Shown here: in pieces, positions 1 through 20,201 of the stretch
Layout: every line of letters starts with the position of its first letter
Position numbering within the stretch: the stretch's first letter is position 1
Source of the DNA: Escherichia coli
GTDB lineage: Bacteria > Pseudomonadota > Gammaproteobacteria > Enterobacterales > Enterobacteriaceae
NCBI GenBank assembly: GCA_003321845.1
Contig: GCA_003321845.1_3917.1
Strand: one strand, 5' to 3'
DNA length: 34,186 nucleotides
The notes under the pieces: model-generated
Told to the model about the DNA's origin: nothing
What the model saw: only the letters and a program-made list of their open reading frames with translations
Database searches by the model: none
Made by a program: the position numbers and the translations under genes

Positions 1-4157
<4,157 letters not shown>

Positions 4158-15856: not shown

Positions 15857-15933
15857 TGGAGAATCCGAAGGGACTCGAACCCTTATAAACCTGTTTTGCA
15901 GACAGGCACATAGCCATTTCTGTCACGGATTCA
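15857..15933 (-). tRNA. tRNA-Cys (anticodon GCA)
   Basis: Hand-folded: encoded CCA, perfect 7-bp acceptor (gaatccg/cggattc), T-arm aaggg-actcgaa-ccctt, anticodon stem cctgt/acagg, loop reads CU-GCA-AA. Confidence 0.75.
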
Positions 15934-15936
15934 AAT

Positions 15937-16029
15937 TGGAGGAAGATACCAGACTTGAACTGGTACACCGATTTCTCAGCTACTGGCAGTTTAGCAAACT
16001 GCTCCCTTACCTTTTAGGGTTAATCTTCC
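15937..16029 (-). tRNA. tRNA-Ser (anticodon GCT), class II
   Basis: Encoded CCA, acceptor ggaagat/atcttcc, T-arm accag-acttgaa-ctggt, ~21-nt variable arm, anticodon stem gcagt/actgc, loop UU-GCU-AA. Confidence 0.75.
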
Positions 16030-16030
16030 A

Positions 16031-16765
16031 TTATTTCTGTAATGCGTTCTTCATTTCTGGTGTTGCAATAGTATCAATTACACCAGTTTTACAAGCATCA
16101 TCAAACCAGTCTGGTAAGATACCTGCTAAGAACCCATTGATATTCGTTTTAAGGTACTCTGCAATAAGAGCAGCTTCTTCTTCAATCATCTGCACAACTT
16201 CATCTGCATAAGCTGTAATCTTCGAAATACCTTCATTAATCTTACTAACAGCTTGGTTAGCTAAATCAGAAATAGTATCAAGACCTTTGTCAATAGCGTC
16301 TTGTAAGTCACTTAATACATCATTAACACCATCTAGAGCGCTGTTAATCGTATCCATAGCTTTTTGACCATACTCTGTAGCAACACCCATAATACCACTA
16401 AACGGTGTACAGCCAACTTGCTCTCCTGCTGCACCCATAACATTAGAATAACCTTTTGCTACCTGCATACGTGAGGAAAACTCATCAATGGACTTTTGAC
16501 CGTAATCCGTCAGCGTTTTGGTAGTTGATGTAGTGCTTGTCAGACTCGTTGTAAAGCTGTTAAGCAGAACTGTTGTAAGTCCAGCAGCAACAAGTTTATC
16601 TTTTATTGTAGGGTCTGTTACAGAGCTAATAGAGCTTACAAGTGATGTAGAGGCAGCTACGGTTCCACCGAGAACTGCTGCACCAGTAATAAGGGGATTA
16701 GAGAACCCTTTACCGGTTTTTAAGAGATTAAAAATCTCCTTACCTTGTTCTGTCATCTCTTTCAT
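16031..16765 (-). CDS. Hypothetical protein encoded inside the tRNA array (possible membrane or coiled-coil protein)
   Basis: ORF track gives 16031..16828 with a GTG start lying inside the tRNA-Phe anticodon arm. The first ATG (MKEMTEQ, at 16765) has AAGGTG 5 nt upstream and is the likelier start. Hydrophobic Gly/Ala segment followed by Ser/Thr-rich and acidic helical regions. Confidence 0.5.
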   Translation of the reverse strand: MKEMTEQGKEIFNLLKTGKGFSNPLITGAAVLGGTVAASTSLVSSISSVTDPTIKDKLVAAGLTTVLLNSFTTSLTSTTSTTKTLTDYGQKSIDEFSSRMQVAKGYSNVMGAAGEQVGCTPFSGIMGVATEYGQKAMDTINSALDGVNDVLSDLQDAIDKGLDTISDLANQAVSKINEGISKITAYADEVVQMIEEEAALIAEYLKTNINGFLAGILPDWFDDACKTGVIDTIATPEMKNALQK

Positions 16766-16781
16766 TAAGCACCTTTGAAAT

Positions 16782-16858
16782 TGGTAGTCCAGTGGGATTT
16801 GAACCCTCTTCTCATGTTTTTCAGACACGCGCTTTAACCATATAAGCTACTTGGACTA
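16782..16858 (-). tRNA. tRNA-Phe (anticodon GAA), slightly atypical
   Basis: Perfect acceptor tagtcca/tggacta, T-loop atttgaa with one T-stem mismatch, anticodon loop CU-GAA-AA. 3' CCA register is ambiguous. Confidence 0.55.
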
Positions 16859-16863
16859 TAAAT

Positions 16864-16939
16864 TGGGGTGACCTACGGGATTTGAACCCGTATAGACCAT
16901 GTTCACAGCATGGGTCATTACCATTTATGATAAGGCCAC
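16864..16939 (-). tRNA. tRNA-His (anticodon GTG)
   Basis: Encoded CCA, acceptor with one G-U pair, T-arm acggg-atttgaa-cccgt, anticodon stem ccatg/catgg, loop CU-GUG-AA. Confidence 0.7.
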
Positions 16940-16970
16940 ATTTAAGGACTCTCGTAAGAACCCTTAGAAG

Positions 16971-17046
16971 TGGCAGCGGCATAAGGATTTGAACCTTAAT
17001 AAGACAGCTTCAGAGACTGCTGCATTGCCAGTTATGCTATACCGCT
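16971..17046 (-). tRNA. tRNA-Gln (anticodon CTG)
   Basis: Encoded CCA, T-arm taagg-atttgaa-cctta, anticodon stem with two G-U pairs, loop CU-CUG-AA. Confidence 0.6.
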
Positions 17047-17051
17047 AAATT

Positions 17052-17130
17052 TGGTACTCCATATCGGATTCGAACCGATACATAACACAGATTTTAAGTC
17101 TGGCCTCTCTGCCAATTGGAGTAATGGAGC
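17052..17130 (-). tRNA. tRNA with anticodon TAA (formally Leu) but short variable arm
   Basis: Encoded CCA, discriminator A, T-arm atcgg-attcgaa-ccgat, anticodon loop CU-UAA-AA. Variable region only ~7 nt, i.e. class-I geometry, unusual for a Leu anticodon. Confidence 0.5.
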
Positions 17131-17131
17131 A

Positions 17132-17206
17132 TGGTACTCACTAAAGGACTTGAACCTTTTTCTTCATCTTGTAAGGGTGGTGTTTTACCATATAAACTAA
17201 GCGAGT
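17132..17206 (-). tRNA. tRNA-Val (anticodon TAC), tentative
   Basis: Encoded CCA, acceptor actcact/agcgagt with one G-U, T-arm aaagg-acttgaa-ccttt. Anticodon stem is imperfect; loop reads CU-UAC-AA. Confidence 0.5.
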
Positions 17207-17302
17207 GTGAAAGAGGTCTGAAGTTGTGCCGCTAACTCAACTCCGTGGAATTTGTTACGGTCTTCAGTTGACTCAAAGCGGTCTTTCACTTGACCTCTAA
17301 AT

Positions 17303-17378
17303 TGGTGCTCCCACAAGGATTCGAACCCTGATAAGTTGCTTACAAGGCAACCGTAATAGCCAATTATACGATAGGAGC
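17303..17378 (-). tRNA. tRNA-Thr (anticodon TGT)
   Basis: Encoded CCA, T-arm caagg-attcgaa-ccctg, perfect anticodon stem gttgc/gcaac, loop CU-UGU-AA. Confidence 0.75.
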
Positions 17379-17385
17379 ATTAATT

Positions 17386-17460
17386 TGGAGCATCCAGAGG
17401 GAATCGAACCCTCAACCTCAGTTTGGAAGACTGTAATTTTCCCGTTTAAACTATGGATGC
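17386..17460 (-). tRNA. tRNA-Gly (anticodon TCC)
   Basis: Encoded CCA, perfect acceptor gcatcca/tggatgc, T-arm gaggg-aatcgaa-ccctc, loop CU-UCC-AA. Confidence 0.7.
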
Positions 17461-17466
17461 ACTAAT

Positions 17467-17542
17467 TGGTGGAGTCACTGGGAATTGAACCCAGTTCCCA
17501 AGTTTGCAAAACTCGAATTTTAACCATATAAACTATGACCCC
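17467..17542 (-). tRNA. tRNA-Ala (anticodon TGC)
   Basis: Encoded CCA, acceptor ggagtca/tgacccc including a G-U pair, T-arm ctggg-aattgaa-cccag, loop UU-UGC-AA. Confidence 0.7.
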
Positions 17543-17548
17543 ATTGTT

Positions 17549-17624
17549 TGGTACAGGTGGAGGGAATTGAACCCATCGTCTTACTGATTAAGAGTCAGCC
17601 GCATAACCATTTTGCTACACCTGC
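17549..17624 (-). tRNA. tRNA-Lys (anticodon CTT)
   Basis: Encoded CCA, acceptor acaggtg/cacctgc, T-loop aattgaa with a 3-bp effective T-stem (same backbone as the Lys-TTT gene), loop CU-CUU-AA. Confidence 0.6.
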
Positions 17625-17631
17625 ATTAATT

Positions 17632-17709
17632 TGGTAGGAGACAAGGGATTCGAACCCTCAAACACCAACTTCTAAGGATGGTAGGTTTACCAATTACCGT
17701 CAATCTCCC
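17632..17709 (-). tRNA. tRNA with anticodon TAG (formally Leu) but short variable arm
   Basis: Encoded CCA, discriminator A, T-arm aaggg-attcgaa-ccctc, anticodon loop CU-UAG-AA with one A-A mismatch in the stem; class-I length (~78 nt). Confidence 0.5.
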
Positions 17710-17961
17710 ATTAAATCTTTTTAGAGAACTTCTAAGAACCTAAGCAACAAGGTTCCACAACAAGCTGTAATAACCTTAGAAGCCCTCTAAAAAGACCTAA
17801 TTTGGTCTTTGCATAGTCTTGTTTAATCCGGTGACTAGAACCTTTGGAGAGCTTGATATTATCTCTTCTCCGTGACACCTACTAGGTGCTTTATCAGTGT
17901 ACGACAATACACGAGGGATAAACCGAAAATGCGAGCAAGCATGGACGGTGTAAATCTTATT

Positions 17962-18052
17962 AGGCGGTAAGTAAAGGAGTCGAACCCTCACCGTATCTCT
18001 ACAGTGGCAACAGTTTTCAAGACTGTTTGGCTGCCATTAGCCGCTACCTACC
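17962..18052 (-). tRNA. tRNA-Ser (anticodon TGA), class II
   Basis: Perfect 6-bp anticodon stem aacagt/actgtt with loop CU-UGA-AA, ~20-nt variable arm, acceptor ggtaagt/acctacc, discriminator G. T-stem has two G-U pairs; CCA not fully encoded. Confidence 0.55.
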
Positions 18053-18065
18053 CCTAATAAGATTT

Positions 18066-18148
18066 TGGCATGGGACGGAGGAGTTGAACCCCTTTGAAAC
18101 GGTTTTGGAGGCCGTTGCTCATGCCTTAGAGTCTTAACATCGTCCCAT
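18066..18148 (-). tRNA. tRNA, probably Trp (anticodon CCA), atypical length
   Basis: Encoded CCA, perfect acceptor atgggac/gtcccat, T-loop agttgaa, anticodon hairpin acggc/accgt with loop CU-CCA-AA. About 7 extra nt in the D-arm region. Confidence 0.45.
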
Positions 18149-18291
18149 ACTGTAATTCGAAGCTTACCGTATTTTCACAACACTGTAAAGCCCCTTCTCA
18201 GATTATTTACATGTTCTGGAAAACATGAGATACAGACCACCTCCTTACACGGAGACCCGATAAGGTCGTCTAAGCAATCTGCTAACTAAAT

Positions 18292-18373
18292 TGGTCGAGG
18301 CGGCAGGACTCGAACCCGCATACTCCACTTACTCGGTTAACGGCGGTTTAGAAGACCGCTGAGATACGCCCCG
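18292..18373 (-). tRNA. tRNA-like element (anticodon-like loop TCT, Arg?) with degenerate D-arm
   Basis: Encoded CCA, acceptor cgaggcg/cgccccg, T-arm gcagg-actcgaa-cccgc, perfect hairpin gcggt-ttagaag-accgc giving CU-UCU-AA. Only ~7 nt where the D-arm should be and ~23 nt between the T-arm and that hairpin. Confidence 0.4.
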
Positions 18374-18667
18374 TAATTATCTTTAAAGACTCTCTGAGAA
18401 AGCCCTTAAAGATGCCCACATTATTAATCATACCGTGGGCTAGTACGCCAAATTCTTTGATGAGGGGTTGGAAGACCTCACTGGTGTTTAGCCTATCAAG
18501 CTACTGCCAGAAAAACATTGTCGTTTGCATTTATTTTAAATTTACAAAATAGACGCTACGCAACGAAAACTATTCAGAATATGTACAACAAATTTCCCCA
18601 CATTGTGTTACGTCTAACGCTCATGTCTTGGTGTTTGAATTATACATATGCTGAATCATTTTCAGTT

Positions 18668-18696
18668 ACTATAAAGTAGTCACATCTCAATGTCAA
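18668..18696 (-). promoter_or_regulatory. Candidate sigma70-type promoter internal to the tRNA array
   Basis: Minus strand reads TTGACA, 17 nt, TATAGT (plus-strand tgtcaa at ~18691 and actata at ~18668); it would drive the lower half of the array. Confidence 0.45.
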
Positions 18697-18711
18697 CAAC
18701 TTTATTGAAAT

Positions 18712-18785
18712 TGGTTGTAGGTGAGGGTATCGAACCCTCTTCTAACGGTTATCAGCCGTTTGCATTACCATTTATGCTAACCCAC
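18712..18785 (-). tRNA. tRNA-Ile (anticodon GAT)
   Basis: Encoded CCA, T-arm gaggg-tatcgaa-ccctc, perfect anticodon stem aacgg/ccgtt, loop CU-GAU-AA. Confidence 0.75.
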
Positions 18786-18788
18786 AAT

Positions 18789-18865
18789 TGGAGGTTCAGA
18801 TGGGAATCGAACCCACATCCATAGGGCTTATGAAACCCCTGCATTACCTTATCTGCGACTGAACC
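18789..18865 (-). tRNA. tRNA-Met (anticodon CAT; could be elongator Met or Ile2)
   Basis: Encoded CCA, perfect acceptor ggttcag/ctgaacc, T-arm atggg-aatcgaa-cccac, loop UU-CAU-AA. Confidence 0.6.
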
Positions 18866-18943
18866 ATAATAAGTACCCTAGTTAGAGAAACTATTGAGTG
18901 GGTGTTTCCAGCCGCGCAGGTGTTTCTCAGTTAAGGGTGAATT

Positions 18944-19019
18944 TGGTAGAAGTGGAGGGATTCGAACCCATCGCCTGTCAGATTAAAAGTCTGCCGCATC
19001 ACCATTCTGCTACACTTCC
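18944..19019 (-). tRNA. tRNA-Lys (anticodon TTT)
   Basis: Encoded CCA, acceptor agaagtg/cacttcc, T-loop attcgaa, anticodon stem caga/tctg, loop CU-UUU-AA. Confidence 0.65.
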
Positions 19020-19024
19020 ATTAA

Positions 19025-19167
19025 ATTATCTTTGTAGATAAGCTACCCAGACTTGCTTAAGGTCTGTAGCGATGTGCCTTTTTGGGTTTAAATCTAGAAT
19101 TTACCCTTTCACCCTTTGTGGTCGCATACTCACAGGTAAGCTTAATAACTTATCTACAAAGATAATT
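19025..19167. repeat. Perfect 18-bp inverted repeat (attatctttgtagataag / cttatctacaaagataat) enclosing ~107 nt
   Basis: Read directly from the sequence; arms at ~19025-19042 and ~19150-19167 within a tRNA-free stretch of the array. Predicts a long stem-closed structured RNA or a DNA cruciform. Confidence 0.6.
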
Positions 19168-19216
19168 ACCAGACCGTTGTTTATCATCTTAAGTGCTACC
19201 ATTACACCAACTCGAC

Positions 19217-19245
19217 ATCTGCCGAGTGAAGGAATCGAACCTTCG
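19217..19245 (-). other. Orphan tRNA T-arm-like hairpin (tRNA fragment or tRNA-like module)
   Basis: gaagg-aatcgaa-ccttc is a perfect T-arm mimic with an acceptor-like 7-mer beside it, but no matching 5' acceptor strand, D-arm or anticodon arm could be found. Confidence 0.3.
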
Positions 19246-19477
19246 CCTTTTCTTTACCGGAGAAATAGATTGTTTAAAGTTTGCTGTAAACGGTCTTCTG
19301 TAAATTTGTTGAGCCAGACCAAGTTTTAAATTTTTTCAAAATTAAATTGGCTTGAAAATTTCATACGTACTTGCTGAATTTGGTCTTCTGCTCCTTTAAA
19401 GAATACTCGTAAGAACTCTTTAAGGGAGGGGCTAAATAGCCCTCTCAAAACATCATTTTGAAATACTTATTATAATT

Positions 19478-19555
19478 TGGCGGTTACGAAGGGATTTGAA
19501 CCCTCATCATCTCCCGTGACAGGGGAGTATTTTAACCAGTTAAACTACATAACCT
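19478..19555 (-). tRNA. tRNA-Asp (anticodon GTC)
   Basis: Encoded CCA, T-arm aaggg-atttgaa-ccctc, perfect anticodon stem ctccc/gggag, loop CU-GUC-AC. Confidence 0.75.
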
Positions 19556-19560
19556 TTATT

Positions 19561-19648
19561 TGGTGTGCCGTGTAGGAGTCGAACCTACCGAGTCTCAATG
19601 ACAAGGGATTTACAGTCCCCACCGCTACCATCTACGGGATAACGACAC
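19561..19648 (-). tRNA. tRNA-Tyr (anticodon GTA), class II
   Basis: Encoded CCA, T-arm gtagg-agtcgaa-cctac, ~15-nt variable arm, anticodon stem aggga/tcccc, loop CU-GUA-AA. Confidence 0.7.
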
Positions 19649-19717
19649 ATTTAATTTCTATTCAGGCTAAGGACTTGCACCTTACAAATCGGTGAGCAAT
19701 CGCTTCTCTCCTAAATT

Positions 19718-19794
19718 TGGCGGTTAGTCAGGGATTCGAACCCTGTGCCATTCGCTTAACAGGCGACCGCACATACCTTATGTGCTTCCTAACC
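19718..19794 (-). tRNA. tRNA-Asn (anticodon GTT)
   Basis: Encoded CCA, T-arm caggg-attcgaa-ccctg, anticodon stem tcgc/gcga, loop CU-GUU-AA. Confidence 0.7.
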
Positions 19795-19871
19795 TTAATA
19801 CATTGCCAGACCGTGTTTTTTCTTTTATCCGCAAAAAGTATTTTGTTGCTGAATACGGTCTTCTGCAAAAT

Positions 19872-19948
19872 TGGAGGCGGGTGCAGGAGTCGAACCTACC
19901 GATACCATGCTAATGAGACATGTGAGACGCCCTTTCTCTATACCCGCA
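19872..19948 (-). tRNA. tRNA-Met (anticodon CAT), possible initiator
   Basis: Encoded CCA, T-arm gcagg-agtcgaa-cctac, D-stem gaga/tctc, anticodon loop with CAT. The 1:72 acceptor pair is mismatched, as in bacterial initiator tRNA. Confidence 0.55.
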
Positions 19949-20039
19949 ATTCTTAATGACCAGACCAAATCTCTTCTTTGTCCGATTTACCTTCAGATGA
20001 ATAAGATTAAGTTTGCTGCAATTGGTCTTCTGTCAAAAC

Positions 20040-20117
20040 TGGCGTTCCAGAAGGGATTTGAACCCTCAAATATCCACTTTGAAAGAGTGGCGACTTTACC
20101 GTTTTGTCTACTGGAAC
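20040..20117 (-). tRNA. tRNA-Glu (anticodon TTC)
   Basis: Encoded CCA, perfect acceptor gttccag/ctggaac, T-arm aaggg-atttgaa-ccctc, perfect anticodon stem ccact/agtgg, loop CU-UUC-AA. Confidence 0.75.
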
Positions 20118-20124
20118 ATTAATT

Positions 20125-20201
20125 TGGTCTCTGTTGGAGGACTTGAACCTCCGGCCTTACCGCCCCAAACGGAACGCTCTACCAAGCTGAGCTAAACAGA
20201 G
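20125..20201 (-). tRNA. tRNA-Pro (anticodon TGG)
   Basis: Encoded CCA, perfect acceptor ctctgtt/aacagag, perfect T-arm ggagg-acttgaa-cctcc, anticodon loop UU-UGG-GG. Confidence 0.65.

Follow-up and report, generated by a model that had tools for sequence, protein, structure and literature searches.

The window analysed here, a 34,186-nt stretch of DNA (contig GCA_003321845.1_3917.1), represents a Felixounavirus (Felix O1-like phage) and carries an array of tRNA genes on the minus strand (15857-20201, ARAGORN) with a gap at 18374-18711. The gap contains a structured RNA of ~195 nt (18572-18379, minus strand), predicted from the sequence and located downstream of a promoter, which appears to be the body of a transfer-messenger RNA (tmRNA), i.e. 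a tag template, helix 5, and pseudoknots. A tRNA-like domain is absent, and the 5' part of the RNA is an arm complementary to the tmRNA of the host. As far as its sequence can tell, this is a widespread and previously unannotated tmRNA-derived RNA, and we regard it as very probable that the RNA is functional. Pairing of the RNA with host tmRNA is likely, at a lower level of assurance. Our tentative reading, to which we assign a probability of about 0.4-0.45, is that the phage RNA docks on the host tmRNA, silences the host tag template, and substitutes a phage-specified tag.

tmRNA and SmpB provide the universal bacterial rescue of stalled ribosomes and mark unfinished proteins for degradation, and stalled ribosomes arise in phage infection and from anti-phage defences that cut mRNA or tRNA. 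Around the element, 761 nt show 94-98% identity to many Felix O1-like phages infecting E. coli and Salmonella, in whose records the gap carries one 'promoter' feature, some small 'hypothetical proteins', and nothing meaningful otherwise. An earlier note on this DNA had described the interval as free of tRNA genes, and neither ARAGORN nor Rfam detected a tRNA there. Its further suggestion, a second tRNA unit with a leader or small RNA, was right in part, since both the conserved sigma-70-type promoter and a small RNA behind it find support, but the content of the interval is far more specific than was guessed: the tag frame, the two pseudoknots, and the anti-tmRNA arm were not mentioned. The components of the RNA, in 5' to 3' order, are as follows.

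18546-18572, minus strand: anti-tmRNA arm of 27 nt, UAGUUUUCGUUGCGUAGCGUCUAUUUU, complementary to nt 81-106 of E. coli tmRNA.
18529-18545, minus strand: single-stranded linker ending in the invariant AUAAAU (18534-18529).
18493-18528, minus strand: tag frame, GCA AAC GAC AAU GUU UUU CUG GCA GUA GCU UGA UAG, specifying ANDNVFLAVA and two stops.
18481-18510, minus strand: helix-5-like hairpin, CUGG...CCAG plus an inner stem, with the stop codon in the apical loop.
18448-18480, minus strand: pseudoknot A, with stem S1 UGAGG/CCUCA and a loop CCAA that pairs with a downstream UUGG.
18414-18447, minus strand: pseudoknot B, with stems S1 CGUACU/GGUAUG and S2 GCCCAC/GUGGGC and an A-rich loop 3, AUUAAUAAU.
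18379-18413, minus strand: 3'-terminal hairpin, AUCUUUAAGGGCUUUCUC-AGA-GAGAGUCUUUAAAGAU, forming a 16-bp stem in the minimum-energy fold and conserved in the Ounavirinae.

The element is present as a single copy in the window (18568-18411, nhmmer E = 1e-42), on the same strand as the tRNA genes. Conservation across phages starts abruptly at (U)AGUUUUCG, which is the predicted 5' end of the RNA because AGUUUUCG is located 6-7 nt past the -10 box in Kolesnikvirus and in those Felix-like phages that have no leader (see below). The 3'-terminal hairpin is followed by AAUUA and then by the 5' end of the next tRNA-like gene and, given this arrangement, the 3' end of the RNA is probably set by RNase P cleavage. 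What the earlier note had taken for direct ctttaaag repeats are actually the two arms of this imperfect hairpin (18413-18379, minus strand), the motif reading as a direct repeat because it is self-complementary.

The tag frame provides the first line of evidence. Alignment with unrelated phages revealed an invariant AUAAAUGCAAACGA followed by a short open frame and, in the window, no canonical start codon is found in frame between the upstream UAG and the GCA codon. Among 21 distinct variants from IMG/VR and GenBank phages, the frame comprises 10 codons and a stop in every case, with TAA, TAG, and TGA all used at codon 11. Variation is concentrated at third positions (GAC/GAT/GAA and GCT/GCC/GCG), where entropy is highest, or consists of synonymous first-position changes (CTG/TTG), and stops occur in the +1 and +2 frames of 19 and 13 of the 21 variants, respectively. 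In the variant of an Enterobacter phage, codons 1-2 have been changed synonymously (GCU AAU...; tag ANDSEVLMAA). Compared with the E. coli ssrA tag, ANDENYALAA, the phage tag (consensus A-N-[DE]-x-x-[FYVM]-L-[AM]-[VA]-A) retains AAND, and its position 7 is still aromatic or hydrophobic, whereas its C-terminus is L-[AM]-[VA]-A rather than A-L-A-A. Upstream of the frame, U(-5) and A(-4) are invariant in alignments A1 and A3 and correspond to U85 and A86 of E. coli tmRNA, the latter being the main frame-setting nucleotide of tmRNA (PMC2481249). The frame, as these comparisons indicate, carries the signature of a trans-translation template and not of an ordinary gene.

Structural conservation was assessed for six helices in alignment A3, which contains 24 diverse sequences. 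Overall, 91.1% of the cells were paired, as opposed to 36-44% when the partners were slid, and compensatory changes were found at 15 of the 27 pairs; the observed pairing values were reached by none of 500 shuffles. The outer helix of the helix-5-like hairpin was 95.7% paired (compensatory changes at two of four pairs). In pseudoknot A, S1 and S2 were 99.2 and 95.8% paired, with compensatory changes at three of five and three of four pairs, respectively, and S1 of pseudoknot B was 97.2% paired (three of six). S2 of pseudoknot B exists in several variants, namely GCCC/GGGC, GUCCCG/CGGGGC, GACGGGAG/CUCCCGUC, GCCCUGA/UCAGGGC, and CCUCA/UGAGG. The minimum-energy fold predicted for the window RNA on its own leaves the seven 5'-terminal nucleotides free; the remainder of the arm is base-paired to the resume region of the same molecule, AAAAUAAAUGCAAACG.

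The likeness of this RNA to the one-piece tmRNA (RF00023, E. coli ssrA) extends to several features: a GCA resume codon with U(-5) and A(-4), a tag of 10 codons with an A-N-D start and a small hydrophobic end, a stop codon in the loop of helix 5, and H-type pseudoknots thereafter, both RNAs being devoid of a start codon and of a Shine-Dalgarno sequence. The phage RNA differs in having two downstream pseudoknots instead of three, in being shorter (~170-195 nt vs 363 nt), in scoring below the Rfam gathering threshold, and in lacking helix P2, while pseudoknot 1 (PK1) is replaced by the arm antisense to tmRNA; no consistent PK1-type fold was found across the subfamilies, the region upstream of the tag being the antisense arm. 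It also lacks the acceptor stem, the T arm, and CCA, and would thus be capable of neither charging nor ribosome entry alone. In the window, ARAGORN found no tmRNA and Rfam no tmRNA family at gathering score, and the ends of the RNA are unlike those of tmRNA, AGUUUUCG directly following the promoter in relatives and the 3' end being a plain hairpin. Searches with Rfam 15 (gathering and E-value modes) and ARAGORN yielded no family assignment for the element and returned sub-threshold tmRNA-type matches only.

The tag module is most closely related to the genuine two-piece tmRNAs of viral contigs, which score 123-130 bits on the Rfam model tmRNA_permuted (RF04321), carry tags of the type ANDNAFLMAA, and have almost the same resume context (CAAAAUAAAU|GCAAACGAU). 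The same model aligns the resume region and the tag in every phage, at 21-31 bits, below the gathering threshold of 47, and the tmRNA covariance-model scores as a whole ran from 15.7 to 31 bits. The coding piece on contig L045, in which CAAAAUAAAU precedes GCA AAC GAU... (ANDNAFLMAA), is an example of such a closest relative, and two-piece tmRNAs are a precedent for a tag template that works while joined to its tRNA-like part by base pairing only. However, a two-piece coding piece has the 5' acceptor strand GGGGCUGA at its start, and its gene lies immediately downstream of that for its acceptor piece; the phage RNA has neither: upstream of it in the window are a complete tRNA-Ile and then the promoter, and a GGGGCUGA-type strand is absent. 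Its pairing arm, moreover, is aimed at the message region of a complete host tmRNA and not at an acceptor piece. The element looks like a module of the coding-piece type from which the acceptor strand was lost and to which an inverted piece of enterobacterial ssrA was added. Complete two-piece tmRNA genes were observed in the IMG/VR contigs L045 (340-697), L017 (7184-7472), and L048 (2538-2837), with the tags ANDNAFLMAA, ANDERFLMAA, and ANDSVYEDVRLAA. A likeness of AGUUUUCGUCAG to the D-loop motif AGGUUUCGACAG of a two-piece tmRNA was dismissed as noise (z 0.5).

Two other kinds of phage-borne RNA invite comparison. The anti-sRNAs of prophages, e.g. AgvB and AsxR of enterohaemorrhagic E. coli (EHEC) prophages, are trans-acting, base-pairing small RNAs (sRNAs) that are known only to sequester their targets. 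They resemble the present RNA in being phage-encoded and in pairing through a 5' seed with a conserved non-coding RNA of the host, but they are not known to bring along a functional module as a replacement, comparable to the translatable tag template and its pseudoknots. Mycobacteriophage DS6A carries a tmRNA remnant consisting of the tRNA-like domain only, which has been proposed to act as a tmRNA inhibitor through titration of SmpB (Hudson, Lau & Williams 2014, PMC4131195). It is likewise a phage-borne partial tmRNA thought to interfere with host trans-translation, but in mirror image: it keeps the tRNA-like domain and has no tag template, whereas the present RNA shows the reverse arrangement and, in addition, the antisense arm.

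The target of the arm, nt 81-106 of E. coli tmRNA, comprises the A-rich linker, the resume codon, and codons 1-6, and within the arm UAGUUUUCGU is perfectly complementary to ACGAAAACUA, which spans codons 3-6 of E. coli ssrA. When the 5' domain of each phage RNA was aligned locally to the antisense strand of ssrA, with shuffled sequences as a control, the same colinear site was found for every variant, at either nt 57-106 or nt 81-106. The longer site, found in most lineages, takes in the 3' half of PK1 as well as the linker, the resume codon, and codons 1-6; the shorter one (nt 81-106) is that of the Ounavirinae, the window among them, with TAGTTTTCGTTGCGTAGCGTCTATTTT aligned against the antisense TAGTTTTCGTCG-TTTGCGACTATTTT. 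Identity scoring gave z values of 10.2 (O26 prophage), 7.8, 7.2 (window), 5.2, and 3.2, and the controls, i.e. the sense strand of ssrA and the 5' part of a genuine two-piece coding piece, scored as noise. Complementarity to host tmRNA exceeded complementarity to the RNA's own sequence in 23 of 24 variants. The element thus has the extended and conserved complementarity, above chance and above self, that would be expected of a trans-acting antisense sRNA. Codons 3-6 of the phage itself vary freely while UAGUUUUCG is fixed, which argues that the selected partner of UAGUUUUCG is external. The target stretch is near-identical in the ssrA genes of Salmonella, Aeromonas, Pectobacterium, and Pantoea, and this near-invariance accounts for an arm common to phages of different genera. 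The GG variant of the Ackermannviridae is present in both Klebsiella and Salmonella phages.

A search with the interval returned matches in unrelated phages at 72-81% identity over ~120 nt, namely in Klebsiella and E. coli siphoviruses, Vi01-like Ackermannviridae, a G7C-like podovirus, and an Aeromonas phage; these matches are unannotated and adjoin tRNA genes on the same strand. Homologues were identified in 758 of 50,697 phage records; all 758 come from Enterobacterales phages, and none is annotated as an RNA. Among the carriers are Felixounavirus, Mooglevirus, Kolesnikvirus, Vi01 and other Ackermannviridae, 46-48 kb siphoviruses, Gamaleyavirus, the lambdoid phage HK633, and the BASEL phage Bas81; T1-like and G7C-like phages are represented. 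Homologues are also present in 144 of 5,426 complete E. coli genomes, with eight places on plasmids. In E. coli O26:H11 strain 11368 (contig L133; NC_013361.1, ~3287100-3287320), the one prophage examined, the element is located in a lambdoid prophage, in a non-coding gap of ~1 kb extending from the Q antiterminator to the holin, within the late transcript, and is unannotated in RefSeq. The slot between Q and holin is where Shiga toxin (Stx) phages carry tRNAs and stx. The element is therefore present in well-studied or applied phages (Felix O1 relatives, Vi01, and BASEL phages) and in prophages of O26- and O104-type E. coli, where it has been overlooked or mis-annotated as hypothetical proteins. 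A description of such a phage RNA was not found in the searchable literature, and an exhaustive 2014 survey of ssrA that covered 543 phage genomes named mycobacteriophages, Bacillus phage G, and DS6A alone, and no enterobacterial phage (PMC4131195).

A mechanism can be proposed from these features. The free 5' UAGUUUU of the phage RNA would nucleate pairing on the single-stranded tag template of the host tmRNA, and the arm would then zip to about nt 81 (nt 57, into PK1, in other lineages), masking the host resume codon. With the two strands antiparallel, the linker and the resume codon of the phage RNA would emerge beside PK1. The distance from the duplex to the phage resume codon is 17 nt in the window and 9-10 nt in the majority type, similar to the 11 nt from PK1 to the host resume codon. 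Stalled ribosomes would admit alanyl-tmRNA and SmpB in the usual way but would then continue on the phage template, and the tag at the end of rescued proteins would be (A)ANDNVFLAVA rather than (A)ANDENYALAA. As the arm of the free RNA is predicted to pair with its own resume region, docking might unmask the phage template in the manner of a toehold switch. Possibly, the altered tag also changes the fate of the protein with respect to ClpXP and SspB, since its C-terminus is L-[AM]-[VA]-A and not A-L-A-A. Both duplex formation in vivo and the resumption of ribosomes on the phage template are steps that we infer.

If this proposal is true, a phage that blocks or dictates the tag would represent a new layer of host takeover and a new re-use of one RNA by another, as well as a natural example of a tmRNA tag template supplied in trans, and the tag swap would be used by many phages of Enterobacterales (Felix O1-like, Vi01-like, T1-like, and G7C-like phages and lambdoid/EHEC prophages). 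If the antisense part alone works, the RNA would be the first known phage sRNA aimed at tmRNA, as far as our searches show.

Several points weigh against the proposed docking and tag substitution. For resumption on a template that is held to tmRNA by base pairing alone, the only precedent is that of the two-piece tmRNAs, and a long duplex between arm and tmRNA might simply trigger RNase III cleavage. The window covers 34 kb of a genome of ~87 kb, and a partner with a tRNA-like domain is possible elsewhere in it. Statistical support for the window-type arm is moderate under G.U-aware scoring (z 2.9-3.1; 2 to 6 of 300-500 shuffles were as good). RNAduplex gave -39 to -48 kcal/mol, but shuffled sequences also scored high and the window reached a z of only -2.1, so that these energies discriminated poorly and were replaced by the local-alignment statistics. 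Three divergent variants (L043, L050, and L088) retain only the UAGUUUUCGUC or GUUUUCG block. Host-specific covariation is not demonstrable, as the target hardly varies. The Salmonella-type ssrA, which has ACC as codon 5, introduces one central mismatch in the toehold and lowers all scores, and in IMG/VR no AGGUUUCG variants matched to Salmonella were found, 18 pattern matches being chance or ordinary tmRNA. Finally, the arm could act in cis, as it pairs with its own resume region in the predicted fold of the window RNA.

The main rival to tag substitution is that the RNA is a pure antisense silencer or decoy, which would block tagging, trigger RNase III cleavage, or soak up proteins that bind tmRNA, e.g. 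S1, SmpB, or RNase R, with the tag frame as an untranslated relic. It draws on the same complementarity between arm and tmRNA; the majority-type arm invades PK1 and would thereby disrupt the folding of tmRNA, and the DS6A remnant is a precedent for phage interference with trans-translation (PMC4131195). A relic, however, would not be expected to keep 10 codons, switching stops at codon 11, a third-position bias, and the L-[AM]-[VA]-A end across lineages with unrelated flanks, nor to hold U(-5) and A(-4) invariant. This counter-argument is not absolute, because the constraint on the tag at codons 7-10 overlaps helix 5. We consider a pure silencer unlikely, though it is the alternative that survives best.

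Less likely still is that the RNA is the coding piece of a split phage tmRNA, the acceptor of which would be the tRNA-like RNA at 18292-18373, the T-arm-bearing bracket modules described below, or a gene outside the window. This idea is consistent with the kinship between the tag module and two-piece tmRNAs, its closest relatives, with the tRNA-like RNA ~5 nt downstream, which has the alanine identity pair G3.U70, A73, and CCA, and with the T-arm-like hairpins that flank the element in other phages. On the other hand, the element has no 5' acceptor strand, its conserved 5' end being the antisense arm, and close relatives that retain the RNA carry a canonical tRNA-Arg(UCU) in the slot of the odd gene. 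Complementarity of the RNA with either of the two odd tRNA-like genes was at or below the shuffle mean, the bracket modules are not present in the window, and host tmRNA was the sole RNA found to have extended complementarity to the arm.

The view of the earlier note, in which an internal promoter is followed by a functionless spacer or leader of a second tRNA unit, accounts for a promoter that is real and conserved and for the tRNA-like genes and tRNAs that follow on the same strand without a terminator. It predicts neither the 72-94% identity across unrelated phage families and prophages, nor the compensatory changes in six helices and the kept tag frame, nor the presence of the element in lambdoid prophages without nearby tRNA genes, and is very improbable. 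A gene for a small protein is hardly credible at all: there are plus-strand open reading frames (ORFs) at 18412-18552 (46 amino acids) and 18518-18679 (53 amino acids) and a same-strand AUG-CAA-ACG frame, similar ORFs are annotated as hypothetical in phage GEC_vB_B1, and open stretches of 29-60 codons are common on the opposite strand in the family, but the opposite-strand frame is broken by stops in most variants and has no conserved start, close variants differ by one-nucleotide indels, the AUG frame stops after 5 to 9 codons at a varying position, and the compensatory pair changes fit an RNA and not a protein.

Upstream of the RNA, two further features were identified.

18668-18696, minus strand: sigma-70-type promoter, with the -35 box TTGACA (18696-18691), a 17-nt spacer, the -10 box TATAGT (18673-18668), and a predicted start near A18661.
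18573-18656, minus strand: leader hairpin, a long-range stem of ~17 bp formed by AUUCAG.CAUAUGUAUAA and UUGUACAUAU.UCUGAAU.

The promoter TTGACA-17-TATAGT (18696-18668, minus strand) had already been pointed out in the earlier note and was borne out, with 11 of 12 consensus positions and the same position in related genera. It is the top-scoring promoter site of the region from 15 to 21 kb; in this AT-rich 6 kb, 12 promoter-like sites were found and 12.3 were expected from shuffles, and the match alone is therefore weak evidence. Its conservation in position in relatives is what renders it credible. The same promoter is present at the same place in other Felixounaviruses and a Mooglevirus and is annotated as a promoter in phage ASO1B; TTGACA-17-TAATCT is found at the homologous place in an Erwinia Kolesnikvirus, and TTGTCA-17-TATAGT upstream of the homologous element in the Ackermannviridae. 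By sequence, the site thus has the -35 and -10 hexamers, the spacing of 17 +/- 1 bp, and the conservation in relatives that define a sigma-70 promoter. As no intrinsic terminator separates the RNA from the tRNA-like genes that follow it, transcription probably continues into these genes.

The leader is an insertion of ~90 nt (18573-18661, minus strand) that is found only in part of the Felixounaviruses and ends directly before the conserved RNA (UAGUUUUCG). It is absent in ASO1B, MET-P1-301, and 3HA14, in which the promoter abuts AGTTTTCG. Its fold has a z value of -3.3 and was equalled in stability by none of 200 shuffles. Comparable 'bracket' hairpins precede the element in the Ackermannviridae and other phages, and both these and the leader hairpin are probably processing modules; the length of ~195 nt given for the RNA assumes that the leader hairpin is cut off. 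The insertion could be a small mobile or exchangeable module. The region that comprises mostly the leader (query positions 70-151) shows 81% identity to the unrelated phage vB_EcoM_JL1.

Bracket modules were observed on both sides of the tmRNA-like RNA in other phages and in E. coli prophages (L003:1620-1720, L133:3425-3490 and 3665-3785, and others). Each consists of a conserved imperfect stem, CACAACAGGUAAGAGCAUUG ... CAGUGCUCUUUCCGUUGUGG, around 30-100 nt of variable cargo, often a T-arm-like GGGUUCGAnUCCC hairpin. They matched no Rfam family and may serve as tRNA-like signals for RNA processing (punctuation). The bracket motif CAGGTAAGAGCA...TGCTCTTTCCG was not found in the window. The possibility that the bracket is a P2-like helix enclosing the element was rejected, since its outer pairs covary locally, indicating a separate hairpin module.

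Downstream of the RNA, two tRNA-like genes were missed by ARAGORN.

18292-18373, minus strand: odd tRNA-like gene with a UCU (Arg) anticodon loop, C1-G72, G3.U70, A73, and CCA.
18065-18150, minus strand: second non-canonical tRNA-like gene with a UGGGACG/CGUCCCA acceptor stem and the anticodon loop CUCCAAA (CCA, Trp).

The first of these has a 7-bp acceptor stem, no D arm (7 nt only), a variable region of ~20 nt, and a normal T arm. Its tRNA-like sequence (18295-18373) scores 31.7 bits on the Rfam tRNA model (gathering score 29), and the tmRNA model matches it end to end as a tRNA-like domain alone (22 bits). In MET-P1-301 and 3HA14, its slot is occupied by a canonical tRNA-Arg(UCU) and the RNA is retained; near-identical copies of the gene are present in rV5-like and jumbo phages, one of them labelled 'tRNA-OTHER'. 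It is probably outside the system. The second gene has an oversized D region and scores 23 bits on the tRNA-Sec model. The two genes may fill the Trp and Arg roles, because tRNAs for these amino acids are missing from the ARAGORN list for the array.

The perfect 6-bp hairpin catgtt-ctggaa-aacatg of the earlier note exists, at 18210-18227, i.e. displaced by one base from where it had been placed and outside the interval; it lies in the spacer between the two odd tRNA-like genes and is conserved in phage ASO1B. Elsewhere in the tRNA array, an ORF of 265 amino acids (16031-16828, minus strand) is located between tRNA-Ser and tRNA-Phe, and its sole match is DUF7217 (PF23854, E = 3e-90).

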